Shown here one piece after another: positions 3,598-61,445 of a DNA stretch of 64,000 nucleotides. Each line of letters opens with the position of its first letter. Position 1 is the first letter of the stretch. The notes below the pieces were generated by a model that saw only the letters and a program-made list of their open reading frames with translations, did not search any database and was not told where the DNA came from. Source of the DNA: Candidatus Yanofskybacteria bacterium (GTDB lineage: Bacteria > Patescibacteriota > Minisyncoccia > 2-02-FULL-40-12 > IGHO2-01-FULL-4-A). The stretch spans positions 259,519 through 323,518 of the forward strand of contig JACOZV010000001.1 of the NCBI GenBank assembly GCA_016181175.1. The letters run 5' to 3'. A program made the position numbers and the translations under genes.

Positions 3598-5439
3598 ATG
3601 AAACTCTCGGATTACGTGATTCATTTTTTGGCCGATTTGGGCTTGAAACATGTTTTTGTGCTGACGGGCGGTTATGCCGTTAATCTGATTGACTCATTCC
3701 ACAAAGAACCGAGATTGAAACATATCTGTGTTAATCATGAACAGGTTGGGGCCATGGCGGCCGAGGCCTACTCTCGTTTTGCCGGTTTTGGCGCTATGAT
3801 CAGCACTAATGCGCCGGGGGCACTGAATCTGCTTAATGGCATAGATGGCGCGTGGAATGATTCTATTCCCTGTATTTTTATCTGTGGGCAGGTAGTTAGG
3901 GAGAGATGGAACCGCAGCAAAGACGTTACTTCACATGGCCGCGAGATTGTAGATATGGTTACCATTGCCGGTTCGGTTACCAAGTATGCCCAATATGTGG
4001 AAGACCCGGAGAATATAAAATATTATATGGAGACAGCCGTTTCTATTGCCAACGAAGGCAGACCGGGACCGGTGCTCCTTGAGATTCCTTTGGATGTGCA
4101 AAAAGCAAATGTTGAGCCGGAAAAACTGGTTGGTTTTAATCCGGATCCGGATGCGCATTTAAGATTGCAAAAAGTTGGACCGCAAAACCAAGACAAGATT
4201 TCCACTAAAATTACAGAAGCTCTGGCAATGATTAAAGAAGCCAAACGTCCAGTTGTTTTGCTGGGCGGCGGGTTAAGACTATCAGGCACAATTGAACAGG
4301 CGCGAATATTTATTGAATCTCTCGGCATTCCAACTGTTGCCACTTGGGCCGCTTTTGACAATATGCCGCATAACCATCCGCTTTATCTGGGCAATATTGG
4401 CAGTTACGGGAACAGGCGGGCTAATTTTACCGTTCAAAACGCAGATTTGGTTATTGCTCTTGGAGCGCGCTTAAATGTCAGACAAACCGGCGGCAGTCCG
4501 AACACATTCGCGCGAGACGCTAAAAAAATCATGGTTGATATTGATGAATTTGAGCTGGCAAGGGCGAGAGTCAAAGTTGACCTGCCAATCAAATGCGATT
4601 TGCGTGACTTCTTTGACCTTTTGTTCGGTCAAAACAAATATCTCCCAAAGCTTAATATTGACTGTTGGCGCAATCAAACAACGACTTACAAAATCTTATA
4701 CACGGAAGTTTTACCTGAATATTATAAGCAAAAAAATTCTGTTAACGTTTATGTTTTTTTAAAAACACTTTCTAATATGATAGATGCTTCTGTTCCGGCA
4801 GTTACGGACTGCGGCGGAAACCTTATCTGGACAATGCAGGCCTTTGAGGTAAAAGATGGCCAAAGAGTTTTTTCTAATATGGGTTTGTCGTCCATGGGCT
4901 ATTCGCTTGCCGCGAGCATCGGTGTTTGCCTTGCCAACGACAAAAAACCAACTGTTTGTATAATCGGAGACGGGGGATTCCAGGTTCACATACAAGAATT
5001 GGAAACTATTAAGCGGTTGGGGCTGCCGATTAAAGTTTTTGTTTTGAACAACCACAGCTACGGAATCATTAAGCAGACAATTGAGTCGTGGTTTGGTATT
5101 GCAAGCACGGAAGAGCTTGAAAAAAGATGTTTGGCTGTATCATCGCGCGACGGTTATAGTTGTCCTGATTTTTTAAAAGTTGCCCGGGCTTATGGCATTG
5201 CCAATCTTAGGATCGGTAGTCATGCCGAAATGGAATCAGGAATAAGAGAAGCTTTGGATTATAATGGTCCAATCGTTTGTGATGTGGTGCTGGATGAACA
5301 TCAAAAAATCACTCCGCGGCTGGAATTCGGCAATCCGCTTGAAGACCAGCATCCGCTGTTGCCAAGGGAAGAATTAAAAAAGGTTATGCTAATTGATGTT
5401 TTGAAAAATAATGAAGAAGAGTGGATGCAGGGGATATAA
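3598..5439 (+). CDS. thiamine-pyrophosphate enzyme of acetolactate-synthase/sulfoacetaldehyde-acetyltransferase family
   Basis: 613 aa; TPP-binding GDGGFQ...(27 aa)...NN motif; three-domain length. Confidence 0.8.
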   Translation: MKLSDYVIHFLADLGLKHVFVLTGGYAVNLIDSFHKEPRLKHICVNHEQVGAMAAEAYSRFAGFGAMISTNAPGALNLLNGIDGAWNDSIPCIFICGQVVRERWNRSKDVTSHGREIVDMVTIAGSVTKYAQYVEDPENIKYYMETAVSIANEGRPGPVLLEIPLDVQKANVEPEKLVGFNPDPDAHLRLQKVGPQNQDKISTKITEALAMIKEAKRPVVLLGGGLRLSGTIEQARIFIESLGIPTVATWAAFDNMPHNHPLYLGNIGSYGNRRANFTVQNADLVIALGARLNVRQTGGSPNTFARDAKKIMVDIDEFELARARVKVDLPIKCDLRDFFDLLFGQNKYLPKLNIDCWRNQTTTYKILYTEVLPEYYKQKNSVNVYVFLKTLSNMIDASVPAVTDCGGNLIWTMQAFEVKDGQRVFSNMGLSSMGYSLAASIGVCLANDKKPTVCIIGDGGFQVHIQELETIKRLGLPIKVFVLNNHSYGIIKQTIESWFGIASTEELEKRCLAVSSRDGYSCPDFLKVARAYGIANLRIGSHAEMESGIREALDYNGPIVCDVVLDEHQKITPRLEFGNPLEDQHPLLPREELKKVMLIDVLKNNEEEWMQGI

Positions 5440-5831: not shown

Positions 5832-6212
5832 ATGTTAGAGCAAGCAGCCGAAGGTAACTTACTAATTGAAAGAAAGCCAATTGAGGTCTTGCTTTCAAAA
5901 ATAGAGAAATTAAAAAAGAGCAAAGAAAAAGAAGTAGCCGATTCGCTAAAAGCAGTAAAGAGAAGATTTCTCATGTGTATTTTTTGGTATACAGGTAAGG
6001 AGTATTCTTTAGATTACTTATGTATGGAATATTCTTCTGGTCTTTCGCGCCAAGAAATAATAATACAAGAAGTAATAATAGATGTACTTAGAAAATTTTC
6101 AGATCAAGAACTAGTAACTTTAGCGACCCATCTAATCCAGGAATCCGTCAAAAGGACGGATTACATTAAAAAAACCGGAAAAAGGTGTTGGTATTGTCGT
6201 TATTTACGCTAG
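5832..6212 (+). CDS. hypothetical protein
   Basis: 126-aa ORF, no recognisable motif. Confidence 0.35.
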   Translation: MLEQAAEGNLLIERKPIEVLLSKIEKLKKSKEKEVADSLKAVKRRFLMCIFWYTGKEYSLDYLCMEYSSGLSRQEIIIQEVIIDVLRKFSDQELVTLATHLIQESVKRTDYIKKTGKRCWYCRYLR

Positions 6213-6907: not shown

Positions 6908-6989
6908 GCTATTGTTCCTGGCAATTTGCGGTTATCCATTCCCCCTTCGTCTTCTGACTCCGGGGCCCGCAAATTGCCAGCGGAACAAT
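6908..6989. repeat. 22-bp inverted repeat with 35-bp spacer in divergent intergenic region
   Basis: ctattgttcctggcaatttgcgg ... ccgcaaattgccagcggaacaata. Confidence 0.6.
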
Positions 6990-7125
6990 AAACGCCCGGT
7001 TCGTTAATTTACTAGTCGGCAGACGAATGACGAAAATCAAGAGGTTTCGCTTGCCTTTGGTTTGTAATTTTTTAGCGAACCATTGTGCCTTTTGTGATTT
7101 TTGTGGATAGCAAAATGGAAAAGCG

Positions 7126-7334
7126 AGGCCATTATGCCTCATAGCACCGTCAAAAGAGTGGATTGTCCCGATTCTGCTTTGCAGAATCGAGGATCCTCGA
7201 TTTTCATGAATGAAAATCGGGACATGGTTTGCGAGCAGTATAATATTTCCTCACTGCGAGCAAAATCCACGCTTTTGACGGAATGTAGAATTCTCGCTGG
7301 GAATTCAAATGGTGATAGGAGGTATAATGGCGAG
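7126..7334 (-). repeat. family-1 TIR/stem element, copy with internal palindromic insertion, followed by tandem partial duplication (7328-7387)
   Basis: reverse complement of 28019-28168 over both ends (ccattatgcctc..tcacc..ccagcgag..ccgtcaaaag.gtggatt). Confidence 0.7.
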
Positions 7335-7462
7335 CTAGTTTTTGAAATTACCAAAAGGCACTATGGCGAGCTGGTTTTTGAATTTGATAAAAATAGTGAT
7401 TCGTGCTATTTTCAATAACAAGTTTTTTAAAAATTAAATTATAGCCGGAGAGGAGGTGGAAT

Positions 7463-9124
7463 ATGGCCGACAAAATTCTTTTTGTTGTAAATAACGTTGA
7501 TTACATTGACCCGATGGGAGTGATGCTAATGTCGGCCTTGGCCAAACGGGAGGGATTCGCGACATTTCTAACCGTTTTAAGTCAGGACGACTTGGGCGAG
7601 GAATTGAAGCGTATTAAACCGGATATAGTCGCGCATTGCAGTGTCAAAACCGGCGAACAACAGTTTTTTCTAAAAGCCAACGACAAAATAAAGGATTATT
7701 CAAAAAGCATCGTTACGATAATGGGCGGTCCTCACCCGACCTTCAACCCTGACATTATTGAAGAAAGCCTAATTGATGCCGTTGGTATGGGCGAATGCGA
7801 TGTTGCCTGGCCCAAACTCCTTAAGGCGTTACGGGACAGAGAAGACACAAGCAACATACCAAATATCTTTACCAGAGATTCCTGGCTTTCTAAATGGAAA
7901 AATGAAACTGAAGCAAATCGTAATCGTTTTAGACACAAATTGACCCACCCTTTGGATGGCCTGCCTTTTTATGACAGAGAGATTGTTTACAGTAAAACTC
8001 ATCTTGGCAAATTTCCAATGCGCTGTTTTATGAGTTCCTGGGGCTGTCCGTTTGAATGCACCTATTGTTTTGAGCCAAAAACGAATGCCCAACAGCGCGG
8101 TCTGGGTCCGATATATAGGAGATACTCTCCAAGACGATTATGCGCCGAACTTAAAGAATTAAAAAATAGATATTCCACCCAGTTCATTAAGTTTTATGAT
8201 GATATGTTCGTTTTGAGCCGGAGCGTTGATCCTTGGCTTGCCGAATTTGCCGAAATTTACCCTCAAGAAGTCGGCTTGCCGTTTTTCTGCTTAACGCGAT
8301 GTAATGTTTTGACCAGAGAGAATCTTACCGTCCTCAAGAAGGCCGGCCTTCATTCAATAACAATGTCCATTGAGTCAGGTAATGATTATATCAGAGAAAA
8401 AGTTATAAAACGCCATATGACTCGGCCTGAAATTGAAGAGGCCTTTGCGCTTTGCAATGAAATGGGCGTAAAAACTTTTGCTAATTCAATTTTGGCTATT
8501 CCGGTAAAAAAGGAAATAATGGCCGAACAAGATAAAACCCCGATTGATTACGATTTTGATTCCCTGGAATTGAATCTCAAATCAAGAGTTACTTTTGGAG
8601 AATTTTCGCCGGTATATCCCTACCCAGGCTGTGAGCTTTCAGAATATGTAGTGGAAAACGGCTGGTTTGACTATACTGACTTTGGAAAACTTCACGCGAG
8701 TTATCAAAACGAGAGTCCGTTAAATTGTTTTACCCCACTGGAAAAAAGAATGCAAAGCAACATGTCGTTGCTGGGAACGGTATTTCTCGCTTTCCCGTTC
8801 TTATATTCCAGGAAATTTGCCGAATTTCTGTTCAAACTGCCGCTGGCAAAACTTTATTTTATTTTATACTTTTTCGTTAAGGGTTATCTAAATGTTTTCA
8901 AAATATATCCGATGAAATTTTCAGTTGTTAGCCTTTTGTTAAATATCCGCAGAAGCATAGCGTTAGAGTACAAGAAACATGCTCCCGGCGAGCGTATTTA
9001 TGAATCCAAGAGGACCATGTCTCAAGCGACTACGCCCATGCTTGGCGGTTTGCCGCAAGGCGGACTGATACCTCCACCGCCAAAGCCAAAAAAGAAAGAC
9101 GACATTTTTAAGATAATTGATTAA
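7463..9124 (+). CDS. B12-binding-domain radical SAM protein (class B)
   Basis: N-terminal B12-binding-like region; CPFECTYC (CxxxCxxC). Confidence 0.75.
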   Translation: MADKILFVVNNVDYIDPMGVMLMSALAKREGFATFLTVLSQDDLGEELKRIKPDIVAHCSVKTGEQQFFLKANDKIKDYSKSIVTIMGGPHPTFNPDIIEESLIDAVGMGECDVAWPKLLKALRDREDTSNIPNIFTRDSWLSKWKNETEANRNRFRHKLTHPLDGLPFYDREIVYSKTHLGKFPMRCFMSSWGCPFECTYCFEPKTNAQQRGLGPIYRRYSPRRLCAELKELKNRYSTQFIKFYDDMFVLSRSVDPWLAEFAEIYPQEVGLPFFCLTRCNVLTRENLTVLKKAGLHSITMSIESGNDYIREKVIKRHMTRPEIEEAFALCNEMGVKTFANSILAIPVKKEIMAEQDKTPIDYDFDSLELNLKSRVTFGEFSPVYPYPGCELSEYVVENGWFDYTDFGKLHASYQNESPLNCFTPLEKRMQSNMSLLGTVFLAFPFLYSRKFAEFLFKLPLAKLYFILYFFVKGYLNVFKIYPMKFSVVSLLLNIRRSIALEYKKHAPGERIYESKRTMSQATTPMLGGLPQGGLIPPPPKPKKKDDIFKIID

Positions 9125-9160
9125 ACAAAGACCCAGATCGGGTCTTTTAATTTAGCAAGG

Positions 9161-9475
9161 GGGTTGACCCCGCACCTTTTCAGCACAATAATCACAGCAT
9201 GCACTGGTTATACATAATTAAAAGTAAGGAAAATGGAGAATTATATATCGGCAGCACAGGAAATTTAGTGAAAAGACTGGCCGAACATAATACTGGCAAA
9301 TCTAGAGCTACGACCAGATATAAACCATGGTTTTTTGTTTATATTGAAGGCTATTTTTCTAAGGATGATGCCTTGCATCGCGAACGGAATCTGAAATACT
9401 TTGGCAAAGTCTATGCCCAATTAAAAAGACGTATTAAAAATAGCCTTCAGGGTGCTGAAAAGGTGCGGGGTTGAC
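9161..9475 (+). mobile_element. family-2 inverted-repeat element enclosing a GIY-YIG nuclease ORF
   Basis: ggttgaccccgcaccttttcagcac ... gtgctgaaaaggtgcggggttgac flank the ORF exactly. Confidence 0.6.
9199..9474 (+). CDS. GIY-YIG nuclease family protein (YhbQ/UPF0213-like)
   Basis: 91 aa; YIGSTGNL...RLAEHN GIY-YIG core. Confidence 0.75.
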   Translation: MHWLYIIKSKENGELYIGSTGNLVKRLAEHNTGKSRATTRYKPWFFVYIEGYFSKDDALHRERNLKYFGKVYAQLKRRIKNSLQGAEKVRG

Positions 9476-45291: not shown

Positions 45292-45570
45292 GAATCCCAA
45301 ACGAGACAGCAAAACCATGTTTTATACATATGTTTTAAGAAATAAAAAAAGCCGCTTTTATGTTGGTTTTACTTATGATTTACGGAAACGCTTCAATGAA
45401 CATAATAATAAAAAATCAACTTATACAAAATATCGTGGCCCATACGAACTTATTTACTATGAAGCTTGTCTTGATGAGAATGACGCTCGTTAAAGAGAAA
45501 AGTATTTTAAATCTGGAACAGGTAAACGCTACTTCAAAAACAGATTGAAGCGTTTCCTGTCTCGTACTGG
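45292..45570 (+). mobile_element. family-3 arms enclosing a GIY-YIG ORF, inserted between secD and secF
   Basis: gaatcccaaacgagacagc after secD stop; ttcctgtctcgtactgg immediately before secF ATG. Confidence 0.6.
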
Positions 45571-51077: not shown

Positions 51078-52364
51078 ATGGCTACTCATAAATGGATTCC
51101 GTGGCCGGGCATAGGACAGGTGGACAAGGGGAGCATCTCTCCGGTTGTAGACAATCATTTTTTCCGACGTTTGAGCGATAAGCGCCAGCTCGCTTTCAGT
51201 TACTTGGTTTTTCCCGGGGCGACACATGACCGCCGTCAGCATTCAATGGGCGCTTACATTAAAACTTGCGAGTTTACCGCGCGGATGGTTGAGCGCGGTT
51301 TTTTAACCAAAAAACAAGCCTTGAACCTCGGCCTTTACGCACTGTTACACGATATCGGCCACGGTCCCTTTTCTCATATTATAGAACCGTTTACCAAGAT
51401 TAACCACAAGGAATACGGCCTTAAGATTGTGGATAGGATGACGGATGATATTAAAAAATGCGGCGGTGATATTAAGCTGATAAAAAGCTATATGAAAAAA
51501 AAGGATCCGGCTTGGCGGATAGTCAGCGATAAGAATTTTGGCATGGAAAAAATGGATTACCTGGTTCGCGATCAAGAAGCGACAGAATTCGGCCCTAATA
51601 TACGTCGCTGTGTGGAGAGCGTTTTTAACCATTTGGAATATAAAAACGGCAGTCTTACGGTTGATTTAAAAGCGTTGGATGCGGCTATTGAAATACAGAG
51701 AGCTTACATCTATTTTTACAGAAACGTTCATCTGGAGAAAAGCGCCTATTTAATCCAGCGTTTTATGCAGAAGCTGATGTACAGATTACTCAATACGCCC
51801 AAAAAACTCGGTGGGATTACCGAAGACGAGCTGTGGGAGATGGTAGACGGCGACTTGATTCATGCTTTGAAAAAATGCCGTGACGAGACCGTCAGAAATG
51901 GCATAGCGATTTTTGATAACGGTGTGCGCCATTTTCCAAAGACTGCTTTGGCAATCCGTTTAACAGGATATAAGTGGCTTGAACGGCGCGCTGGCAAGCA
52001 GATAAAGGTTGTTGAAGCTGATAAGAAATTTTTTGATAAGTTTTTTGTAAAATCCAGCGCCGCCGATTTGGAAAAAATAGAAACAGCAATTGCCAAATTG
52101 TTGGGCATAGAAAGTTGGAAAATGGCCGTAAGCCATATAGTGGAGAAAAACCGCTTTATTCCAGAGGATATTTTATTTTTTGACGGACCGAAAACTTATT
52201 CATTAAAACAGCAAGATCCGAGTTATTTTGAACTTCTTGAAAAAGAATTGGATAAATATTTGTGTGTCAGGGTCTGCGTGGTGCCTGAACATCGCCAGGC
52301 GCTATATTCCAAATGGAAAGAAGTTTTTGATCTTGTTTGCAAATATGTTGGTCATAAACCATAA
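51078..52364 (+). CDS. HD-domain phosphohydrolase (dGTPase/SAMHD1-like)
   Basis: H...HD...LLHDIGHGPFSH. Confidence 0.7.
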   Translation: MATHKWIPWPGIGQVDKGSISPVVDNHFFRRLSDKRQLAFSYLVFPGATHDRRQHSMGAYIKTCEFTARMVERGFLTKKQALNLGLYALLHDIGHGPFSHIIEPFTKINHKEYGLKIVDRMTDDIKKCGGDIKLIKSYMKKKDPAWRIVSDKNFGMEKMDYLVRDQEATEFGPNIRRCVESVFNHLEYKNGSLTVDLKALDAAIEIQRAYIYFYRNVHLEKSAYLIQRFMQKLMYRLLNTPKKLGGITEDELWEMVDGDLIHALKKCRDETVRNGIAIFDNGVRHFPKTALAIRLTGYKWLERRAGKQIKVVEADKKFFDKFFVKSSAADLEKIETAIAKLLGIESWKMAVSHIVEKNRFIPEDILFFDGPKTYSLKQQDPSYFELLEKELDKYLCVRVCVVPEHRQALYSKWKEVFDLVCKYVGHKP

Positions 52365-52398
52365 AACCGGCTTAAGCCGGTTTTATGGTTTATGAGGG

Positions 52399-52447
52399 TC
52401 CGTCCACCAGGAATCGAACCTGGAACCTTCTCCTTAAAAGGGAGCTG
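52399..52447 (-). repeat. duplicated 3' half (anticodon stem to 3' end) of tRNA-Lys, not a complete tRNA
   Basis: 49 nt identical to 52489-52537 region of the full gene. Confidence 0.8.
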
Positions 52448-52488
52448 TCCTGGTTTTGTAAACAAAATCGAGGATTCTCGATACAAAG

Positions 52489-52561
52489 TCCGTCCACCAG
52501 GAATCGAACCTGGAACCTTCTCCTTAAAAGGGAGCTGCTCTACCAATTGAGCTATGGACGG
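52489..52561 (-). tRNA. tRNA-Lys (anticodon UUU)
   Basis: manual fold: acceptor CCGTCCA/TGGACGG, U8, D-loop AATTGGTA, anticodon loop CUUUUAA, T-loop TTCGATT. Confidence 0.75.
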
Positions 52562-52639
52562 ACTTTGTATCGGAACTCTTCCGGGGAATTTTTTGACGGA
52601 AATCGAGACGATTTCCTAAAATTACCGTCAAAGCCAAGC

Positions 52640-52678
52640 AGTTGGTTTTGACCCAACTGAGCTAAGGGCGGAAAGTAA
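52640..52678 (-). other. tRNA-like 5' fragment (GCCCTTAGCTCAGTTGG...) without matching 3' half
   Basis: acceptor/D-arm-like sequence, no GAGC/T-arm. Confidence 0.25.
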
Positions 52679-52704
52679 CATTCTAGCATAGAAAACGAGT
52701 TTAC

Positions 52705-52745
52705 TCAATAAAAAAGCCTCGTGTGCATGAGCTACACGAGGCTTG
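52705..52745 (-). terminator. rho-independent terminator of SPFH gene
   Basis: gcctcgtgtagctcatgcacacgaggc + T-run on minus strand. Confidence 0.6.
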
Positions 52746-52864
52746 CCAGTTCAGTATGGAACTTGACGGTTTACTGCTTGGGGCTTGTCCGAGGAATACT
52801 CATGTCTAGCCCGAGCTCTCTTGCCGTTTTGGTGGATAGCACAGTCAGCACTATCCTGTTGTGA

Positions 52865-53692
52865 TTACTTTTGTGGCAATTGGAGAAAAGGAATAGCTCC
52901 ACCACCATTGTAGGTCGGTAGGTTGCCGTTCCATTTGACGATCGCCTGGCCTTGTAGCTCTAGGCGTCGCCACTCCAGGAGTGTTGGCGAGAGCGAACTC
53001 GTGAGGATCTTGTTTGACTCCGCTTCGCCTTCGGCTGCTGCGATTCGTTTCTGTGCCTCTGCCCTAGAGGTTCGCAATTGGTTCTCCGCCATGATGGCTT
53101 GCTGGATGGCCCTTACCTTTTCGTTGATTGCGTCCACAACTGCTTGAGGTGGTCGTGGTGCACCAATGAAACCGAACTGATCGAGAATTACCCCCTGCGG
53201 CTCCAGTTCTTCTTGGAGGGCCTTCCTGGTATCTGCCAGGAACTTAGCGTTGTCGCCCATGATGTCCTCTATTTTATACTTGCCGGCTATGTTGTCGAAC
53301 TTCTCGCGGGCCATGTTACGGAGAAAACCGTGCGTAAACGTTTGCAGATCGTCAGACCTGAACTTGACGTAAAATGCAGGCACTTTCTCTGCAACGAGAT
53401 GGTAGGCCAAACTGATGTCCGCGTCCACCTTCATCTGGTCACCGGTGGTGAACGTAATTTCCTCATTCACCGGATTTCCTTCTTCAAGCGACTTTGTCCA
53501 GGCCACTGTTTGGACGAAGGTAGGATATTCCTCAATTTCTGTCGAAATCGGGTTGTAAAATACCCAGCCCGTTTTCAATGTGAAGTCCTGAACTCCACGC
53601 TGGCTGCCAGCAAGATCCACTTCAATCCCCACATGGCCAGGGCCGATCCGCGTACAGCCACTGCCGGCTAGCATTGAAGAAGCAACCGCCAA
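52865..53692 (-). CDS. SPFH/band-7 (prohibitin/HflK-like) protein; upstream in-frame extension to 53938 contains TGA at 53909-53911
   Basis: SPFH domain with coiled-coil C-terminus; GC-rich (~55-60%) versus ~40% surroundings. Confidence 0.7.
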   Translation of the reverse strand: MAVASSMLAGSGCTRIGPGHVGIEVDLAGSQRGVQDFTLKTGWVFYNPISTEIEEYPTFVQTVAWTKSLEEGNPVNEEITFTTGDQMKVDADISLAYHLVAEKVPAFYVKFRSDDLQTFTHGFLRNMAREKFDNIAGKYKIEDIMGDNAKFLADTRKALQEELEPQGVILDQFGFIGAPRPPQAVVDAINEKVRAIQQAIMAENQLRTSRAEAQKRIAAAEGEAESNKILTSSLSPTLLEWRRLELQGQAIVKWNGNLPTYNGGGAIPFLQLPQK

Positions 53693-54065
53693 AATAATGA
53701 CGGCTGACCTTACGTTGTCTTCCCTCTGCTCGCCAGTCAGGCATGGCTTCAGTATCCTTTTGCAGTAGTAGAATCCGCAAATTCCGACTGTGAGCAGAAT
53801 CGCTACACCCTCGACGACGCCAGCGTCGCTCGGTGAGTTGATCAGAGCGAAAGCGAAGTTAACGACCCGGATGGCGACAAGACCTAAAACGATCGTCAGA
53901 ACAACGGTTCAGACACTAAACTTCTTTCGTATCCGCATGAGATTTCTCCTTCTGCTATTTTTAGGCCTTTTGCCTCGGCATAGCTACCAGTTTGGTTGTC
54001 AGCGAACTACTTCTACATTCTAACAAACAGCTACATTTTTGTCAAACAAGACAACGACTCAAAAA

Positions 54066-56072
54066 TTATAACTGTTTTCGGAGCTTAAGCATCTGTTCCC
54101 GCAGATACATCGCCTTTTCAAATTTGAGTTCTTTGACTGCCCGTTCCATTTCTTTTTGCAGGCGTTCTACTTGCATTGTGGGCGTTAGATGTTCTATTTC
54201 TTTTTCTTTGTCGGATAAATCATAACTATACCACTTGCTGATTCGTGCTTTTTTTGCCGAAGGTAAATCCGAGCGTTTAACCGCTTTTTGTATGGATGTA
54301 GGAGTAACGCCATGCTTGCGATTATATTCTTCCTGCACCTTGCGCCTGCGTTCCGTTTCTTTTATTGCATTAGCCATTGAACGCGTTATTTTGTCGGCAT
54401 ACATAATGACATGGCCGTCCAAATGCCGTGCCGCACGGCCCATGGTCTGTATCAATGTGGTGGCGTTGCGCAGAAAACCTTCTTTATCGGCATCCAAAAT
54501 TGCGATCAATGAGACTTCCGGTAAGTCCAACCCTTCCCGAAGCAAATTAACGCCGACAATGACATCATAGTTACCAAGTCGCAGGTCATGTATAATCTCA
54601 AGCCGTTGGAGAGTTTTGATTTCTGAATGTATGTAGTTGACCTTGATACCGTTGTCGGCCAAGTGTTCCGACAAATCCTCGGCCATTCTTTTGGTAAGTG
54701 TTGTAACCAAAATTCTCTGGCCATTAGTTATACGTTTTTTTATTTCACCGAGCAGATGTTTTATTTGATTTTTGGTTGGTCTGATTTCAATAGTCGGATC
54801 AAGTAGTCCGGTAGGTCGTACCAGTTGCTCGGCTATACCCTTTTTGCCGGATTTCTTGAGCTCATATTCCTTGGGAGTGGCTGACATATATATTGTCTGG
54901 CCGACATTTTTTTTGAATTCATCAAAACGGAGCGGACGGTTATCCAGCGCCGATGGCAAGCGGAAGCCATATTCAACTAGCGTGGCCTTGCGGGAGTAAT
55001 CGCCGGCATGCATGCCGTTTAATTGTGGGATCGTGAGGTGTGATTCGTCTATGATCGTCAAAAAGTTGCTTTTAGTTTTGAAGAAGTCAAGCATTGTAAA
55101 AGGTGGTGCGCCGGGGGTGCGGAAATCAAGGTGGCGCGAGTAATTTTCAATGCCATGGCAGTAACCGGTTTGTTTTATCATTCGGATATCGCGTTCAGTG
55201 CGTTCTTTTAGCCTGGCTGCTTCAAGGGCTAGCCCATTTCGTTCAAGTTTTTTTATGTGCCACTGAAGCTCGGTTTTTATGTTTTCAATAGCCAGATCTA
55301 TTTTATCGTCTGCGGCTATCCAGTATTTGGCCGGAAAAATTTTAGTTTCAATGATTTTCTCATATGCCGGATCTGTATAAATAAGAGAATCCAAATCCAC
55401 GCCATCGGCAACGGCGATTTTTTCTATGTGATTGTTTTTTGTTTTGATCCTTGTGATTTTGTTGCCAGTCGCCGAAACTATTTCTATTTCATCAGTTGAT
55501 TTACGAAATGTTCCTCGCTTGAGTTCTATGTCCTGGGCGTATTGTAATTTCAGTAGGGAGAATGCCAATTGTTTTAAATTTATTTTTTGTCCTTCAAAAA
55601 GGTGAAGCGACATTTTCTGGTAATCTTCGGGCGAGCCGAGGTTATAAATGCAGGAAACCGAAGCTATTACTATGACGTCATCGCGAGTCATAACTGCCTG
55701 AGTTGCCGCGTGGCGCAAGCGGTCTATTTCCTCGTTTATGCGGGCATCCTTTTCTATGTAAGTGTCGGTGTGGGGAATGTAGGCCTCGGGCTGATAGTAG
55801 TCGTAATAACTGACAAAGTAGTGAACGGAATTATGGGGGAAAAACTCCCTGAATTCCTGATAAAGTTGTGCGGCTAATGTTTTGTTGTGGGAAATGATAA
55901 GCGTCGGCTTTTTGATGTTGGCGATTACGTTAGCGATTGTGTAGGTTTTACCGCTACCAGTTACGCCGACCAAAGTTTGATGTTTTGCGCCGCGCTCAAG
56001 CCCACGAGTTAGTTTTGCTATGGCATCAGGCTGGTCGCCAGTCGGCTTGAATTTTGAGTTTAGGTTAAACAT
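54066..56072 (-). CDS. uvrB: excinuclease ABC subunit B
   Basis: GVTGSGKT Walker A; helicase motifs; C-terminal UVR domain. Confidence 0.95.
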   Translation of the reverse strand: MFNLNSKFKPTGDQPDAIAKLTRGLERGAKHQTLVGVTGSGKTYTIANVIANIKKPTLIISHNKTLAAQLYQEFREFFPHNSVHYFVSYYDYYQPEAYIPHTDTYIEKDARINEEIDRLRHAATQAVMTRDDVIVIASVSCIYNLGSPEDYQKMSLHLFEGQKINLKQLAFSLLKLQYAQDIELKRGTFRKSTDEIEIVSATGNKITRIKTKNNHIEKIAVADGVDLDSLIYTDPAYEKIIETKIFPAKYWIAADDKIDLAIENIKTELQWHIKKLERNGLALEAARLKERTERDIRMIKQTGYCHGIENYSRHLDFRTPGAPPFTMLDFFKTKSNFLTIIDESHLTIPQLNGMHAGDYSRKATLVEYGFRLPSALDNRPLRFDEFKKNVGQTIYMSATPKEYELKKSGKKGIAEQLVRPTGLLDPTIEIRPTKNQIKHLLGEIKKRITNGQRILVTTLTKRMAEDLSEHLADNGIKVNYIHSEIKTLQRLEIIHDLRLGNYDVIVGVNLLREGLDLPEVSLIAILDADKEGFLRNATTLIQTMGRAARHLDGHVIMYADKITRSMANAIKETERRRKVQEEYNRKHGVTPTSIQKAVKRSDLPSAKKARISKWYSYDLSDKEKEIEHLTPTMQVERLQKEMERAVKELKFEKAMYLREQMLKLRKQL

Positions 56073-57879: not shown

Positions 57880-59703
57880 ATGCCGGAACAGACACAGCCA
57901 CACCCGCTGCGCAGATTTATTATTTCCCTTAAGTTATACAGGGCACACATAGGATTGGGTAGTAACGAAAAGCTTATTAAGTTTGTTGATGAGCTTGTTC
58001 AAAGTGCTGAAAGAATTGAAACAAGGCAGGAGGCATCGGGCAGATCGGTTGGGTTAAGTTTTGAGTTTTTAGATTCAGTTTGCGGTTTCCTTTATAACCA
58101 ACTGCAAAAAGTAACAGCAGAAAACAATAAAAATAAGGCCGAAGCCAATAAATTATTGGAAAACCTGAAAAGTGCCGTTGAAGAAATAAAAGCTCTTCAA
58201 CGCCCTCCCCATTCGTTTGTTTTTTTTCAGAAGTTGGAAGAAAGAGGTGGCGAATTTTGGATTCGTACAAAAGATAGTACTGCTTTAGTATTTTCAGACG
58301 AATTGGTTGAGAAACTAAAAACCGCCAAAGCGGGCCAAAAGGTTCGGCTCAACGAATCCGGTGTAGCCATAGAATTGTTGGACGAGTTTGATAAAGACGG
58401 CGACATGGTGCAAGTTCTCGAGTTGTTGGGTGACAACCGATTGAGGGTTAGCCAAGAAAATAGGGGTGAAAGCATAGTTTTTATTTCTCCTTGTGTCCAA
58501 GAGGCGGATCTCAAAATAGGCGATAAGGTTTTACTTTCGCGATATAACAATTTAGTTACTGAAAAATTGTCCAGCTCCGAAGTAACCGAACTGGTTTTGC
58601 ATAAAGTTCCTAATTATACCTGGGATGATATTGGTGGTTTGGAAGAACAAATTGGTGCGTGGCGGGACGAAGTTGAAACCAACCTGGTTGATCCCGAATC
58701 AGCCAAAATTTACGGAATTGAGCAAACGAAAGGCGTTTTAATTACCGGTCCGCCCGGAGTCGGTAAGACTTTTCTCGTAAAAGTCGCGCTTAGCGAAACC
58801 GTAAAGTTTGTTAATCAGCAAACAGGCAGAAATATCGAGGGTTTTTATATCCTTGTAAACGGTCCAGCCGATATTTTGCGCGGTATTGTGGGGGATTCGC
58901 CGCGGCGAATCCAATATCTTTTCGCTGAAGCCAAAAGAAGGGCCAAGGAAGGCCATTTGGTTTTTATAATTTTGGATGAGTTCGAATCGTTATTTAGAAT
59001 ACGCGGCTCAATGGTTTTGGATGCCGGGGTTGGCAATGAAGATGTTAACCAGTTAAATGCTGAAATGGACGGCATTGAAGAATTGGATGGCGTACTGGTT
59101 GTGGCTTTGTCAAACAGGGCTGACCTAATTGACCCCGCCGTAATCAGACCCGGCAGGTTTGATCTCAAGATAGAAATTCCGAGATATGATAAAAAAACTG
59201 CCGCCAAAGTCTTTAGCAAATACATCAAACCGACACTCAAGTTCCATCACCAATATAAAAATCAAGACCCGGAACAAACTGCAAACCTGTTTGTTAACAA
59301 CATCGTTGATCTGTGTTATGACAGTCAGAGACCAGAAAATCAGCTGGCAGAAGTCATAGATGATGACTCCGGAGAATCTATCGTGTTCACTATTGGCAAC
59401 TTTATGTCCGGAGCTTTGATTAAAAACATAGTTTCAAGGGCAAAAAAAATTGCCCGTCGCCGGTTTGTGAATATTCCCAAAGAACAAGGCGAGAAAAGAG
59501 AATTAGAAGGGCTTATGTTGGACGACTTTTTCCAATCCATTGCAATAATTATCAGAAGCGAAATTAAATTACCGACCGGCGAGCAGGCACTAGAAGAATG
59601 GCTTCAAATTGAAGGTTATCAACACAGAAAAATAAGAAGAATGCGTTTTCTTTTGGACAAGAAAGATCCGTCCCGGACACCGGAACGCAGGGTCATGTCT
59701 TAA
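57880..59703 (+). CDS. proteasome-associated AAA ATPase (ARC/Mpa-like): coiled coil + OB-like region + AAA module
   Basis: GPPGVGKT Walker A, IILDEF Walker B, N-terminal coiled coil. Confidence 0.75.
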   Translation: MPEQTQPHPLRRFIISLKLYRAHIGLGSNEKLIKFVDELVQSAERIETRQEASGRSVGLSFEFLDSVCGFLYNQLQKVTAENNKNKAEANKLLENLKSAVEEIKALQRPPHSFVFFQKLEERGGEFWIRTKDSTALVFSDELVEKLKTAKAGQKVRLNESGVAIELLDEFDKDGDMVQVLELLGDNRLRVSQENRGESIVFISPCVQEADLKIGDKVLLSRYNNLVTEKLSSSEVTELVLHKVPNYTWDDIGGLEEQIGAWRDEVETNLVDPESAKIYGIEQTKGVLITGPPGVGKTFLVKVALSETVKFVNQQTGRNIEGFYILVNGPADILRGIVGDSPRRIQYLFAEAKRRAKEGHLVFIILDEFESLFRIRGSMVLDAGVGNEDVNQLNAEMDGIEELDGVLVVALSNRADLIDPAVIRPGRFDLKIEIPRYDKKTAAKVFSKYIKPTLKFHHQYKNQDPEQTANLFVNNIVDLCYDSQRPENQLAEVIDDDSGESIVFTIGNFMSGALIKNIVSRAKKIARRRFVNIPKEQGEKRELEGLMLDDFFQSIAIIIRSEIKLPTGEQALEEWLQIEGYQHRKIRRMRFLLDKKDPSRTPERRVMS

Positions 59704-59745
59704 TAAAATAAATAAAACCTCGCTTTACTTGGCGAGGTTTTTTAC
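59704..59745 (+). terminator. rho-independent terminator
   Basis: cctcgctttacttggcgagg + T-run. Confidence 0.6.
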
Positions 59746-59789
59746 TTAGAGTGGTTTAATTAGTGCAGATCTTTAAAAACGAGAGGAAT

Positions 59790-61445
59790 ATGAGTATTAA
59801 AAAAATTGTTGGAATAGAAACCGAGCTAAGACTTGACTGCGTCGATCCCGAAAATGACAAAAACCGAAAGAATTCTGGAGAATTGGAAGATTACGTGCTT
59901 CCGGGGAGTGTTGTTAAAAACGCGTTGAGCCAATCTGGTGGAGTTGTCGCCGTTGGTTCCGACACGCAACCCGCAAATTTGCAAAAAAATTTGGCGATTG
60001 TGGAAAATTTAAAAAAACTTTATCCGTCGTCACAAAAAGCCATACAAGAGCATTTGGAAAACAGAAGCGCAAGAAAGCGGGACCGTGGCATATCTGAAGA
60101 AGACTGCCTTGATACATATCAAAGATTTGGCCTTTCGGGCGGTTATACGTTTTCGGGTTTTAGGATTTATGTTGATGGAACTCATCCCGAAGTGTCAACG
60201 CCTGAATGTGCCACTCCTTTTGATTTGGTTTGCCGGCAAAAAGCCGGGGAAAGGATCATAGAAGAGGGCAGAAAGAAAACCGAAGAAGAAACCGGACGAC
60301 GGATTACGCTTTCGGCTGACAACAGCGACGGTTTGGGGGGAAGCTGGGGTTCTCACGAAAATTACCTTGTAAGCGATGAGCTTTTCGAGAGCCTTACTGA
60401 GGAAGGATGCCACCGTCACGATTTTCGCAGAACCCTTAATTCATATCAGGACTTTTGGGCCTCTTTTTTGGTGACACGTTTTGTATTTTGTGGTTCTGGC
60501 AAAATGGGCAGTGAAATTGACCAGGATTTGGAAAATAAATTTTTGATTTCGCAAAGAGCGGAGTTTATAAGCTGTAATTTTAGTCATAGAACCATGGAAC
60601 ACCGTCCCATTATAAATCTGCGCGATATTCCTTATGTTGGACCCGGATTTGGCCGGAGGCTGCACGTAATAATTGGTGACTCTAACATGTGTGAACCGGC
60701 AATTTACCTAAAAGTTGGCACGGCGATGATAATGCTGATGATGTTAGAAGATAATTTTATTTCTGAAGGTTCTTTCCCTATTTTTGAAAAACCGGTTAAA
60801 GCCTTGCAAACCGTCATGTCTGACGTTGATTGCTCCAATCTCCTAGATGTCTATGTTGGCGGTCAGTTTAGACACATGACCGCGATAGATATACAGAAGT
60901 TTTTTTGCGAATTGGCGGCAAAATGGCTTGAAGAACGTTTTAAAAATACCAGCGACAAAAAATCTGTTTCTTGGGTTTCGGAAGTTTTGTTCAGATTAGA
61001 TCAAGTTTTGACCAAGTTAAAAAATGATCCCATGGATCTTTTTGGCACAATTGACTGGGTGACCAAGTATGGCTTATGTTGTTCTGAACTTGAAAACCGA
61101 AATGCTGGTTGGACAGACGTAACCTCGCGTTCGAACCCGCTATTTCGCCGTTTGATCGGGATATGCGGCGCATATCATAGGTTAGACGAACTTGGCATAT
61201 ACAATAAATTAGAAGAAGCTCAAGAAGTTGAACGTATTGTTCAGGACGTTAATATTCACATTGCTTGTCTTGAGCCGCCGCAAGGCACCAGGGCTTTTGA
61301 GAGGGGCAAATTTCTTAGACATTTCAGGGACGACATATATCTTGTAAACTGGAACCTCATTTGCATTAAACGCAATCCTTACAAAATATTTCTAAACAGT
61401 CCATATTCATTTTCACCCGCTTTAGATGTGGAGCAAGAATCATGA
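59790..61445 (+). CDS. Pup-ligase/deamidase (PafA/Dop) family homologue 1, divergent N-terminal motif
   Basis: IVGIETELRL (instead of ETEYG), HPEVSTPECATPFD; SD gagagga. Confidence 0.65.
   Translation: MSIKKIVGIETELRLDCVDPENDKNRKNSGELEDYVLPGSVVKNALSQSGGVVAVGSDTQPANLQKNLAIVENLKKLYPSSQKAIQEHLENRSARKRDRGISEEDCLDTYQRFGLSGGYTFSGFRIYVDGTHPEVSTPECATPFDLVCRQKAGERIIEEGRKKTEEETGRRITLSADNSDGLGGSWGSHENYLVSDELFESLTEEGCHRHDFRRTLNSYQDFWASFLVTRFVFCGSGKMGSEIDQDLENKFLISQRAEFISCNFSHRTMEHRPIINLRDIPYVGPGFGRRLHVIIGDSNMCEPAIYLKVGTAMIMLMMLEDNFISEGSFPIFEKPVKALQTVMSDVDCSNLLDVYVGGQFRHMTAIDIQKFFCELAAKWLEERFKNTSDKKSVSWVSEVLFRLDQVLTKLKNDPMDLFGTIDWVTKYGLCCSELENRNAGWTDVTSRSNPLFRRLIGICGAYHRLDELGIYNKLEEAQEVERIVQDVNIHIACLEPPQGTRAFERGKFLRHFRDDIYLVNWNLICIKRNPYKIFLNSPYSFSPALDVEQES

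Follow-up and report, generated by a model that had tools for sequence, protein, structure and literature searches.

Selfish DNA is known to reside in essential tRNA genes in two ways: as self-splicing introns, or by way of integrases that restore the tRNA's 3′ end. The tRNA-targeting integrative elements (prophages, ICEs and islands) are 9–120 kb long and integrase-encoding, and of the tRNA they bring no more than the 3′ part (10.1101/2022.07.05.498093). Fragments of tRNA lying beside tRNA genes are routinely taken as scars of integrases and are used to delimit islands. A case involving a 5′ fragment has been described in an archaeon, Caldiarchaeum subterraneum: its tRNA-Thr locus, which is polymorphic within a population, has a 5′ tRNA fragment separated from a complete tRNA by a 1.8-kb element that encodes a recombinase (PMC3293823). 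As for introns, tRNA introns are abundant in Patescibacteria, and those known there are group I introns situated in the anticodon loop (PMC13011429).

Here, we describe a locus from a genome of Candidatus Yanofskybacteria (CPR/Patescibacteria), contained in a 64-kb stretch of DNA that was analyzed as a whole (the window), in which a complete tRNA-Lys gene lies within another tRNA-Lys gene. A preliminary description had read it as the scar of an integrase att site next to the remnant of a horizontally acquired island, the latter carrying an SPFH gene interrupted by TGA. We consider it rather probable that the tRNA gene became nested through a small, non-coding insertion bearing a tRNA, and that the SPFH gene is a resident that was truncated separately.

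Structure of the tRNA-Lys Locus

Three features had drawn attention to this locus: a copy of the 3′ half of tRNA-Lys, given as 49 nt long and 42 bp away from the full gene, a small palindrome in the spacer, and a tRNA-like 5′ fragment at 52640–52678. The repeat is exact, but it is 50 nt long with a 40-nt spacer (52398–52447 and 52488–52537, 100% identical, with a start-to-start spacing of 90). The palindrome, ATCGAGGATTCTCGAT, lies in the spacer at 52467–52482 as described, and its second copy, noticed near 7190, is at 7186–7201 with one mismatch; its four strand-hits in the window compare with 0.02 expected by chance. The 5′ fragment is real but shorter, running from 52671 to 52653 on the minus strand. 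All of these are parts of one structure (Table 1): a single resident tRNA-Lys(UUU) gene, which adjoins an HD-domain gene, as in relatives, has been broken where the D-stem meets the anticodon stem (G24|C25), and its two ends are what had been seen as a 5′ fragment and a duplicated 3′ half. The promoter together with the first 16 nt of the outer tRNA is identical at 48 of 56 positions to the uninterrupted tRNA-Lys gene of a relative (L012), and that of another (L007) also aligns. The flank of the 3′ piece has its ortholog downstream of the single tRNA-Lys in L007; both halves of the broken locus, promoter with 5′ fragment and 3′ piece with flank, have orthologs in the single tRNA-Lys genes of these two relatives.

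Table 1. Features of the nested tRNA-Lys locus, the neighboring SPFH gene and the tRNA-less copy (window coordinates).
Feature	Position	Strand	Basis
tRNA-less element copy, 57 nt	7166..7222	+	exact indel vs L001/L002; R1 50.6 bits
Perfect 44-nt palindrome overlapping HD gene stop	52352..52395	.	inverted repeat, 22+22 nt, 100% complementary
Outer tRNA-Lys positions 25–73, now identical to inner gene	52399..52447	-	exact repeat
tRNA-carrying insertion element, 128 nt, non-coding	52448..52575	-	modular architecture common to L006, L010, L011 (two copies), L016, L017 and L024
Palindrome ATCGAGAATCCTCGAT then TTTTGTTT, base of hairpins I and II, terminator-like	52467..52482	-	sequence scan and fold
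Inner tRNA-Lys(UUU)	52489..52561	-	ARAGORN; Rfam tRNA 70.9 bits; no CCA encoded
Leader, 5′ strand of acceptor-extending stem	52562..52575	-	pairing with trailer
AGAG, outer tRNA positions 21–24, directly 5′ of element	52576..52579	-	cross-locus comparison
X′, 73-nt two-hairpin insert in outer D-loop	52580..52652	-	same position in L006, L017 and partly L016
Outer (resident) tRNA-Lys positions 1–19, CCGCCCTTAGCTCAGTTGG	52653..52671	-	matches tRNA-Lys 5′ end of L001/L012 and outer fragment of L006
−10 box TAGAAT, resident tRNA-Lys promoter	52680..52685	-	promoter scan and alignment; 8 nt upstream of outer tRNA position 1
−35 box TTGAGT, resident tRNA-Lys promoter	52703..52708	-	promoter scan: TTGAGT-17-TAGAAT with TG extension
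Hairpin AAGCCTCGTGT-AGCTCATGC-ACACGAGGCTT plus TTTT, downstream of SPFH stop	52710..52744	-	sequence reading; absent from the list of a simple scan
SPFH/Band-7 gene, ancestral long form, 357 codons, broken at codon 10	52865..53938	-	Pfam Band_7 2.9e-30
Longest ORF after TGA, TTG start, 275 aa, equal to deposited annotation	52865..53692	-	ORF list and homologue match
TGA nonsense codon	53909..53911	-	GGG (Gly) at this position in relatives
Promoter-like TTGACA-17-TAGAAT (11/12) upstream of SPFH ATG	54017..54045	-	promoter scan; TTGACA region aligns with L001–L004

The element occupying the break reads, in order, left end TTCCGAT, leader, inner tRNA-Lys, trailer, palindrome, AT-rich hairpin and right end CCAGGA; its general layout is TYCCGAK, leader, tRNA, trailer, ATCGAGRATCCTCGAT, hairpin and ATCGGGA. 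The inner tRNA-Lys can form a full cloverleaf with a UUU anticodon and an acceptor stem paired at seven of seven positions, and scores 70.9 bits over model positions 1–71. The outer halves are mismatched: the 5′ CCGCCCT faces a 3′ TGGACGG, which gives two acceptor mismatches, and position 20 is missing. From these features the inner gene appears to be the functional one; it would be driven by the resident −10 box and promoter, and the 44-nt palindrome beyond the outer 3′ piece would serve as a bidirectional terminator.

Why are the two 50-nt copies identical? In another nested locus, L006, the homologue of the outer 3′ piece keeps the outer-type AGGGCGG, which matches the CCGCCCT of the 5′ fragment. 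To judge from this comparison, the 50/50 identity in the window would best be explained by gene conversion, through which the outer 3′ piece was homogenized to the inner gene. An exact copy at 90-nt spacing in a MAG contig could also bring to mind local tandem duplication by slippage, or an assembly artefact, but this is scarcely credible: the sequences before and after the two copies are unrelated, so that no 90-nt unit is repeated and simple tandem duplication is rejected, and the same architecture occurs in NCBI, ENA and JGI assemblies.

Secondary Structure of the Element

The element consists of two hairpins sharing a basal motif of 7–8 nt, TYCCGAT ... ATCGRGRA. The first bears the complete tRNA-Lys at its tip, and thus the leader and trailer lengthen the acceptor stem by about 11 bp. 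They form 10–11 contiguous pairs beyond the acceptor stem in six of six nested copies (11 in the window) and two at most in seven of seven single tRNA-Lys genes. Compensatory double changes are found at 16 of 43 pairs, including seven consecutive ones in the stem extension. The G-U pairs of the stem work on the sense strand only, which would leave room for movement of the element, or selection on it, at the level of RNA or of single strands. Terminal inverted repeats of 7–8 bp, (G)TCCCGAT ... ATCGGGA(C), bound the element, although they are degenerate in the tRNA-bearing copy of the window. The hairpins of X′ also appear in the computed fold. Rfam searches over 52300–54100, 6950–7450 and the whole window matched tRNA only, the remaining matches being noise from terminator palindromes.

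The element folds into a compact, self-contained structure with paired ends, as might be expected if it were an intron-like insert that is removed from the RNA, leaving a functional outer tRNA in a locus that encodes two tRNA-Lys. The abundance of tRNA introns in Patescibacteria (PMC13011429) and the junction in the nested locus L010, which is exactly G24|C25 with nothing lost, would suit such an arrangement. It is nevertheless extremely improbable. In addition to the mismatched acceptor and the lost position 20 in the window, the outer 3′ part is truncated in L016, L011 is short by 6 nt, and the anticodon loop in L010 has 8 nt. Neither a group I nor a BHB intron is indicated: Rfam gives no match to group I or any other intron, and the insert lies away from the anticodon loop used by the group I introns of the phylum.

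Occurrence in Other Genomes

The same nested architecture is found at seven other loci in independent assemblies, distributed among L006 and L016 (NCBI, the former a MAG), L010 and L011 (JGI), and L017 and L024 (ENA), with inner and outer tRNA-Lys sequences that differ; L024 was found via translations of spurious ORFs, as the single match from that approach. The 3′ modules of all copies align, and the two-hairpin module has identical boundaries in eight copies. A covariance model built from this module (R1) matched only the known copies in a search of 166 kb, two of them in the window; a weak match (E = 0.025) at 5158–5211 of the window, which falls within a long ORF, was set aside.

Several types of tRNA-Lys gene have received the element. 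The outer halves pair CCGCCCT with AGGGCGG in L006, GCGCCCA with TGGGCGC in L010 and CCGTCCA with TGGACGG in L011, and the type CCGCCCG also occurs, yet the junction is always 24|25; AGAG precedes the left end in the window, L006, L010, L016 and L017. The element is present in both UUU and CUU tRNA-Lys genes, and the same type of inner tRNA has UUU in the window and CUU in L010. In L011, one element is carried inside an earlier copy, so that the nesting is double. Comparison of filled and empty sites indicates a clean insertion between G and C without target-site duplication: starting at C25, filled L017 and empty L021 agree at all of 98 nt reaching into the flank. When L017/L021, window/L001 and L010 were inspected, attB and the two junctions proved to share no core of a dinucleotide or longer, such as the common overlap of site-specific integration by serine or tyrosine recombinases. 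The left junctions vary, with X′ found in three or four loci and missing in L010 and L011, and thus part of the history relies on inferred deletions and secondary insertions.

A second copy in the window carries no tRNA. Its sequence, TCCCGATT-CTGC-TTT-GCAG-AATCGAGGATCCTCGATT-TTCATGAATGAA-AATCGGGA, folds as two hairpins. It is absent as a clean indel from L001 and L002, where the surrounding structured, RNA-like region is otherwise conserved.

Could the arrangement be immobile, an ancestral cassette for expression or processing of tRNA-Lys, whose outer pieces arose by unequal or ectopic recombination between tRNA-Lys paralogues? Every tRNA-bearing copy is in a tRNA-Lys gene, the same HD gene precedes five of them, and recombination or conversion between copies is evident in L024 and in the 3′ piece of the window. 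We hold this to be quite unlikely, because seven single tRNA-Lys genes of the same clade have no cassette, the junction is constant in outer genes of several types, the 57-nt copy is a clean indel in an unrelated RNA-like region, and L010 has its copy in another genomic context.

That mobile DNA has hit this tRNA-Lys gene, as first supposed, is supported. Was it an integrase-borne island that entered the 3′ part of tRNA-Lys, duplicated a 50-nt block and was later deleted to 40 nt, with the SPFH gene as leftover cargo? A repeat of the 3′ part does lie beside a complete tRNA, together with a difference in composition, as for an island between attL and attR. Like many att sites, the identity block begins in the anticodon stem and covers the rest of the tRNA up to its 3′ end (10.1101/2022.07.05.498093). 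L024 has neither leader nor 5′ fragment, only a full tRNA with the module and a partial copy, and viewed by itself it resembles the classical pattern of a full tRNA plus partial repeat; in L027 and L028, the gene of a large serine recombinase extends into the same tRNA-Lys, and relatives differ in gene content beyond the tRNA. Still, we regard a scar of this kind as unlikely. The 40-nt spacer is no random remnant but the conserved, structured two-hairpin module with boundaries alike in the seven other loci, and it is all that lies between the tRNA copies, where an integrase or cargo would be expected. The 5′ fragment, the covarying leader, the double nesting and the tRNA-less copy would be left unexplained, and the junctions and empty sites have no common core. 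Moreover, the repeats do not enclose the SPFH gene, which is situated 5′ of the tRNA promoter and is syntenic in relatives, adjoining uvrB in L001–L004, instead of being absent from them. The gene is GC-rich in those relatives as well, which also counts against an island remnant.

Viral contigs were scanned for the X′ hairpin, the inner tRNA and the pattern of palindrome plus right end, and contained no copy. Two matches from a further viral-contig scan, within a phage polymerase-like ORF with no tRNA nearby, were discarded as chance.

The Neighboring SPFH Gene

The SPFH/Band-7 proteins (HflK/C-prohibitin-like) are membrane scaffolds, with which the window gene has the Band_7 domain in common (PF01145, 106 bits against a gathering cut-off of 23.6), although the window copy is without the long-form start. 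The whole frame is spanned by homologues about 356 aa long, and close homologues occur across CPR MAGs under annotations as prohibitin or SPFH proteins. As noted initially, an in-frame TGA stands at codon 10 from the ATG at 53938 and is followed by 347 open codons. The hairpin and T-run downstream would be the terminator of the gene.

The jump in GC content around the gene is smaller than the 55–60% first given: it is raised, to 0.48–0.557 in 300-nt windows. The gene itself has a GC of 0.52 and a GC3 of 0.58–0.59, the top value in the window, against 0.416 ± 0.029 and 0.409 ± 0.052 for the 45 long ORFs. Orthologous loci, which the preliminary description had named as evidence that would count against an acquired gene, do exist: they are equally GC-rich, their ATG is intact, and GGG stands in place of the TGA of the window. 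The gene is GC-rich in L001–L004 and in a more distant homologue, L005; it is so relative to its flanks in L001 and L005, and the signal in composition is therefore old or specific to the gene. Nucleotide identity to L001–L004 is 86.5% in the gene and about 81% in its flanks. In L007 and L012 other, non-orthologous Band_7 genes occupy this slot.

The gene is an old, GC-rich resident, whose two-helix N-terminal extension was lost to one stop codon (a GGR Gly codon changed to TGA) and is decaying. In the extension, dN/dS is 0.16 and seven amino-acid changes are specific to the window, against none in L001 (p = 0.016); they are mostly non-conservative and include Gly to Glu in a helix. In the body, with a dN/dS of 0.10, window-specific changes number 7 against 11, without excess, and by these measures the body remains under purifying selection. 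Recent pseudogenization, one of the two options first offered, is thus the better of them, but only the N-terminal extension is affected. Translation from an internal start probably yields the body as a short form resembling a lipoprotein; a lipobox-like LAGSGC has its Cys at residue 13 of the 275-aa ORF. No good canonical start with a Shine-Dalgarno sequence was seen before the lipobox, and the TTG start leaves just 12 residues before the Cys; the body may therefore already be a very recent pseudogene.

The other option was a donor that recodes UGA. It finds no footing in a gene with a lone TGA, in a host that stops at TGA, with an extension that decays faster. The preliminary description was right that the host uses the standard code: eight of the 45 long ORFs terminate in TGA, and ORFs run without interruption for as many as 911 aa. 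A variant is that the long protein is made after all, UGA being read as Gly as in genetic code 25 or being read through, or that the TGA is a consensus error. Homologues have Gly at exactly this position, a strong promoter and a Shine-Dalgarno sequence precede the upstream ATG, and the stretch from the TGA to the TTG at 53692 has no canonical start. It is very unlikely all the same. One in-frame TGA in 357 codons is not the mark of a lineage using code 4 or 25, and the use of TGA as a stop elsewhere in the window points the same way. GGA to TGA is a single step, so that Gly at this position is unremarkable, and the excess of window-specific changes in the extension fits lost constraint, not continued use. 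Among sister lineages the gene is long in L005 and split at a G9 run in L001–L004. With long, split, truncated and lipoprotein forms, the two-helix anchor of SPFH proteins is evolutionarily labile, which is ordinary but instructive.

A Model for Nesting of tRNA Genes

For the nested tRNA-Lys, we favor an insertion by the following course. The element would be mobile but non-autonomous, and would be tolerated in an essential gene because it supplies a replacement tRNA. This tRNA, being promoterless, would rely for its transcription on the promoter captured from the broken gene, and would be freed from the long duplex by processing of the RNase III/P/Z type. The replacement recreates the target site, which would permit renewed invasion and thus nesting. 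We propose tentatively, without pressing the point, that this represents an undescribed class of miniature non-coding mobile elements in CPR/Patescibacteria, which homes to the D-stem/anticodon-stem junction of tRNA-Lys and survives in an essential single-copy gene by means of its promoterless replacement tRNA in a long processing stem, capturing the promoter and being invaded again to give tRNA genes within tRNA genes. Literature searches, with incomplete coverage, on bacterial tRNA genes that are interrupted or nested, on tRNA introns of CPR and on MITEs gave no description of such a structure, which does not prove novelty.

If so, the 128-nt insert, which destroys a gene and replaces it, adds a third mode in which selfish DNA can inhabit an essential tRNA gene. 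Sequences of tRNAs could turn over by this route, and even the anticodon could switch (UUU in the window, CUU in L010), which would be notable in organisms with minimal, single-copy tRNA sets. Reading the locus as a scar would here misplace a resident SPFH gene in an island. The element also offers a compact natural cassette of stem, tRNA and hairpin for direct tests of processing.

Comparison with Known Systems

The element resembles REP/REPIN sequences, the IS200/IS605-derived PATEs and MITEs in being short and non-coding, with hairpins that have a common motif at the stem base, and in its clean presence/absence polymorphism. Like MITEs it has terminal inverted repeats, but target-site duplication is absent, as it is for HUH-type elements. 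It differs from PATE/REP in its inconstant 5′ flank, which is AGAG in tRNA genes and ATTG at 7166; this speaks against a fixed target of the IS200/IS605 type. No Y1/RAYT transposase gene is present in the 64-kb window, and tblastn with an IS200-like protein of L001, whose gene has hairpins unlike those of the element, gave no copy. That search turned up small GIY-YIG ORFs, which are common in CPR and were not taken as evidence. We know of no REP/REPIN, PATE or MITE that carries a tRNA gene or inserts inside one.

With tRNA-targeting integrative elements the element shares its target, a tRNA gene of which a partial copy is left by a complete one, the restoration of the tRNA by incoming DNA, and an identity block that reaches the tRNA 3′ end (10.1101/2022.07.05.498093). 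In contrast to them, the insert in the window has 128 nt, is non-coding, brings a whole tRNA with a covarying leader/trailer stem, and leaves a 5′ fragment at junctions without a shared core. A 5′ fragment upstream of a complete tRNA of the same isotype, following a mobile-element event, is what the Caldiarchaeum tRNA-Thr locus has in common with the window; that case is archaeal, encodes a recombinase and has intron-containing complete tRNAs, and a nested structure, an extension stem or a miniature element is not described there (PMC3293823). Finally, the group I introns of the same phylum likewise interrupt tRNA genes without killing the cell, mostly without homing-endonuclease genes. They are self-splicing ribozymes of at least 200 nt in the anticodon loop, and the host tRNA stays functional, whereas the element lies at 24|25, has no ribozyme signature in Rfam, and is predicted to kill its host gene and replace it by the tRNA that it carries.

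Organization of the tRNA-Lys locus

The tRNA-Lys region of the window holds a 128-nt non-coding element that has a defined structure, recurs in other genomes, is polymorphic for insertion and keeps a conserved stem. The complete tRNA-Lys within it (inner tRNA) appears, from comparison of the sequences, to be the product of a small tRNA-carrying insertion. It is bracketed by a 5′ fragment and a copy of the tRNA 3′ half, which together are one additional tRNA-Lys gene (outer tRNA), broken at G24/C25 and again in the D-loop, where a two-hairpin block, X′, is inserted. Within the element, the trailer is complementary to the leader. The preliminary description had recorded the 3′-half copy, which is indeed exact and downstream of the full gene, although the repeat is 50 nt rather than 49 nt long (52398-52447 equals 52488-52537), with 40 nt rather than 42 nt between the copies. 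The 5′ fragment that it placed at 52640-52678 is also real and spans only the 19 nt of 52671-52653, and the spacer palindrome was rightly seen again near 7190 (7186-7201; 0.02 matches expected by chance).

Features of the tRNA-Lys region and its neighborhood in the window
Feature	Position	Strand	Remarks
Sigma-70/HARE-HTH-like gene		+	first in the listed neighborhood
Gene without assigned function			after the sigma-70/HARE-HTH-like gene; Pfam DUF8128 in relatives
TraG/VirD4-like ATPase gene			between the DUF8128-type and HD-domain genes
HD-domain gene	51078-52364	+	tRNA region next
Perfect palindrome, 44 nt			after the outer 3′ piece; common to the converging HD gene
Outer tRNA-Lys positions 25-73 (3′ piece)	52447-52399	-
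Element, 128 nt	52575-52448	-	left end TTCCGAT, 7-nt leader, inner tRNA-Lys, trailer, palindrome ATCGAGAATCCTCGAT, AT-rich hairpin, right end CCAGGA
Inner tRNA-Lys(UUU)	52489-52561	-	acceptor CCGTCCA/TGGACGG
AGAG (outer tRNA positions 21-24)		-	directly after X′
X′, two-hairpin block, 73 nt	52652-52580	-
Outer tRNA-Lys positions 1-19 (5′ fragment)	52671-52653	-	acceptor strand CCGCCCT
Promoter TTGAGT-17-TAGAAT	52708-52680	-
SPFH terminator hairpin	52744-52710	-
SPFH gene	52865-53938	-	after the tRNA region
uvrB		-	after SPFH
ruvA, FemAB-like gene, proteasomal-type AAA ATPase, Pup-ligase homologue			after uvrB

Insertion and recurrence

The promoter and 5′ fragment of the window can be aligned with those of the single tRNA-Lys in two homologous loci from other assemblies, L012 (48/56) and L007, and the 3′ piece and terminator with the tRNA 3′ end, terminator and HD gene end of L007; therefore the broken outer gene is the resident orthologue. 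From C25 through 98 nt of flank, an intact tRNA-Lys in L021 shows no difference from the outer 3′ piece of the nested locus L017 and its flank. Moreover, a conserved structured region contains, at 7166-7222, a 57-nt version of the element in which a TTT triloop replaces the tRNA, and exactly these 57 nt are absent from L001 and L002 (empty site ggattg^catgg). Neither a target-site duplication nor a common core sequence is visible at the junctions.

The structured region (window 7095-7335), about 180 nt long and apparently non-coding, has counterparts at L001 3868-4045 and L002 3772-3949 with 74% identity. Its long stems carry compensatory changes (e.g., CCGTCAAAAG/CTTTTGACGG versus CCGTTGAAAG/CTTTCAACGG), it gave no Rfam match, and its position is 5′ of a B12-binding radical-SAM gene (7463-9124) in the window and between tRNA-Lys and the HD gene in L001. 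It may be an undescribed CPR RNA.

Related loci were gathered by a DNA scan with the T-arm and acceptor of the inner tRNA and by look-ups of HD-gene homologues. Seven share the nested structure of the window, among them L006, L010, L011, L016, L017 and L024; the analysis thus covered eight such loci, with two element copies in the 64 kb of the window. Wherever both outer halves are kept, they pair: CCGCCCT with AGGGCGG in L006, GCGCCCA with TGGGCGC-CCA in L010, where the 24|25 junction is exact and the anticodon is CUU in the inner and outer gene alike, and CCGTCCA with TGGACGG in L011. The last is doubly nested, a CCGCCCA-type gene lying within a CCGTCCA-type gene, 3′ of which come a second copy of the 3′ module (the part of the element 3′ of the inner tRNA) and the 3′ part of a third tRNA-Lys. 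The anticodon loop of the middle-layer tRNA-Lys 3′ part (L011 1856-1935) holds an extra insert of about 29 nt that contains a perfect hairpin (CCCCGCTCTTTTCAAAAGAGCGGGG). L024 represents a further recombination product: it has lost the leader and 5′ fragment, and its promoter abuts a chimeric complete tRNA gene, 3′ of which stand the module and the outer 3′ part.

The 3′ modules can be aligned across all nine copies, with invariant CGAG.ATCC and C.GGAC blocks, and a covariance model built from them matches only these copies in 166 kb. The repeat had been taken for an integrase att-site scar; the 40 nt between its copies are, rather than a random leftover, a conserved module whose ends are fixed. 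Nor would an att scar left by a deleted island account for the 5′ fragment, the covariation of the leader, the nested arrangement or the copy without a tRNA.

Conservation of the stem and gene conversion

Beyond the acceptor stem, leader and trailer form 10-11 contiguous pairs in all six nested genes compared, versus at most two in all seven uninterrupted tRNA-Lys genes of the same clade. The sequences vary among copies (ACAAAGT, GCTTTGT, ATTGCGT, GCTGAGT, TCTCCCG) with complementarity kept. RNAalifold finds double compensatory changes at 16 of the 43 pairs, seven of them consecutive in the extension stem, and G-U pairs whose counterparts on the opposite strand would be A-C mismatches; two adjacent hairpins with related stem bases occur in the fold of every element copy. 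Conservation of the leader/trailer stem is evidence of selection on structure.

The composite of L006 is 91% identical to that of the window across 281 nt and its 3′ piece, still of the outer type, has 8 differences from the inner gene in 50 positions. The window 3′ piece has the inner-gene sequence, yet its flank is still resident. The simplest explanation for the 100% repeat identity would be gene conversion between repeats 90 nt apart.

The SPFH gene

The neighboring SPFH ORF is 100% identical to a deposited Candidatus Yanofskybacteria bacterium protein annotated as 'prohibitin family protein', and Yanofskybacteria/Paceibacterota MAGs are the nearest genomic relatives of the window. In composition the gene stands apart from the rest of the window (GC 0.52, GC3 0.58-0.59, against 0.416 ± 0.029 and 0.409 ± 0.052 for 45 window ORFs); a jump to about 55-60% had been reported, and GC is indeed raised, this level being reached only in single 300-nt windows. 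As described, a TGA (53909-53911) is codon 10 of the frame opening at ATG 53938, and the host code is standard, TGA terminating 8 of the 45 long ORFs.

The proposal of a horizontally acquired island remnant, possibly from a UGA-recoding donor, is not supported. Homologues of about 356 aa span the entire frame, its N-terminal two-helix extension included, the three closest full-length ones have Gly at the TGA position, and the DNA there reads GTC GGG ACC in L001-L005 versus GTC TGA ACC in the window. L001-L004 carry SPFH in the same slot, between uvrB and the tRNA-Lys/HD genes, with nucleotide identity to the window of 86.5% within SPFH versus about 81% in the flanking DNA, and the gene is GC-rich there too (0.54 versus 0.45-0.49 in surroundings in L001; 0.58 versus 0.40-0.46 in L005). 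Therefore, there was no recent acquisition and no recoded donor. Nor does SPFH suit the role of island cargo, lying outside the repeat-bounded interval.

Recent pseudogenisation, the other reading offered, fits the extension and not the body. In the comparison of the window with L001, the body has a dN/dS of 0.10 and the extension one of 0.16. When L005 serves as outgroup, seven replacements in the extension are specific to the window, among them W to R, R to F and G to E, and none to L001 (p = 0.016); in the body the corresponding counts are seven, all conservative, and 11. Constraint thus appears to have been lost on the extension, not on the body, in the window lineage. The sole canonical start remaining is TTG at 53692, 12 residues before a lipobox-like Cys. 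SPFH is a resident gene with an ordinary N-terminal truncation. What was originally observed is confirmed, and the island and recoding interpretation is not supported.

In L001-L004, four independent assemblies, a G9 run (L001 1590-1610) splits the extension (77-aa ORF) from the body, which starts at a new ATG overlapping the upstream stop as ATGA; one additional G would join the frames. Phase variation, programmed frameshifting or a split that is simply fixed could lie behind this arrangement. Between tRNA-Lys and uvrB, L007 has a flotillin-like Band_7 gene of 460 aa (7519-8901), and L012 has a 281-aa Band_7 lipoprotein gene beyond tRNA-Lys (8334-9179); neither protein is detectably related to window SPFH by BLASTP, and therefore different SPFH genes alternate at the locus. 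Farther along the window (57880-61445), the proteasomal-type AAA ATPase gene, with OB domains, adjoins the Pup-ligase-family gene, that is, pupylation-like components in a CPR genome.

The tRNA-Lys locus as a hotspot

The tRNA-Lys beside the HD gene is a genuine hotspot, and gene content beyond it varies widely among relatives. In the sister-lineage loci L027 (3344-4896) and L028 (1518-3070), a 513-aa large serine recombinase gene (Resolvase and Zn_ribbon_recom) ends inside the HD-downstream tRNA-Lys and is followed by a primase-like gene, a putative full-size integrated element at the same tRNA. In the window, L007 and L012 the tRNA-Lys faces the HD gene, and in L001, L006, L008, L011, L015 and L016 it faces the other way; with the L001 and L012 tRNA genes identical in sequence, this implies that the tRNA locus has been inverted repeatedly.

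Other occupants were also seen. Three genes absent from the window, a 2′-5′ RNA ligase/LigT-like gene and two without Pfam match, lie between tRNA-Lys and the Band_7 gene of L012 (5490-8205), a further sign of a variable interval. In L015, a complete tRNA-Lys and, about 530 nt downstream, a degenerate, internally deleted copy (5338-5411 and 5936-5998) bracket a 111-aa ORF without Pfam match, possibly a very small integrated element or what remains of one. Just 3′ of tRNA-Lys in L001 (2880-3700) and also L002 is an IS200-like Y1 transposase gene with REP-like palindromes (CACTTGGCGGTCGGACCGCCAAGTG) both at its flanks and within it; their hairpins show no relationship to the ones in the tRNA-carrying element.

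A probable mechanism

Most probably, a non-autonomous element is inserted at G24^C25 by some enzyme, killing the target gene and at once delivering a substitute tRNA. Having no promoter of its own, the substitute would use that of the broken gene; in the window, as in L010, L011 and L016, the outer 5′ fragment has a promoter ahead of it. The long leader/trailer duplex could make the inner tRNA excisable from a foreign transcript, and the palindrome followed by T-rich sequence may stop transcription, a signal that is weak in several copies. Since the substitute would recreate the target site, it could be invaded again. Free-standing nucleases such as GIY-YIG ORFs are candidates for the insertion activity. 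GIY-YIG-only ORFs of about 78 aa occur at window 45317-45547 and 9199-9396 and at L018 5731-5967, the last directly 5′ of tRNA-Lys, which may be coincidence.

Comparison with known systems

The element appears to be undescribed: in the literature searched, coverage of which was incomplete, no account of one bacterial tRNA gene nested within another was found. Its analogues include the Caldiarchaeum tRNA-Thr locus, with a 1.8-kb recombinase-encoding element between a 5′ fragment and a complete tRNA (PMC3293823), hairpin-based miniature elements (REP/REPIN, PATEs, MITEs) and the group I tRNA introns of Patescibacteria (PMC13011429). It lacks a target-site duplication, a fixed target tetranucleotide and a ribozyme, and its host tRNA is not intact. 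The nearest analogues are the tRNA-targeting integrative elements that rebuild the 3′ end, with example sizes of 9-23 kb and a 121-kb island (10.1101/2022.07.05.498093), from which it differs in lacking an integrase and a core. The element has single features in common with every one of these four, each of which also has defining features that it lacks.
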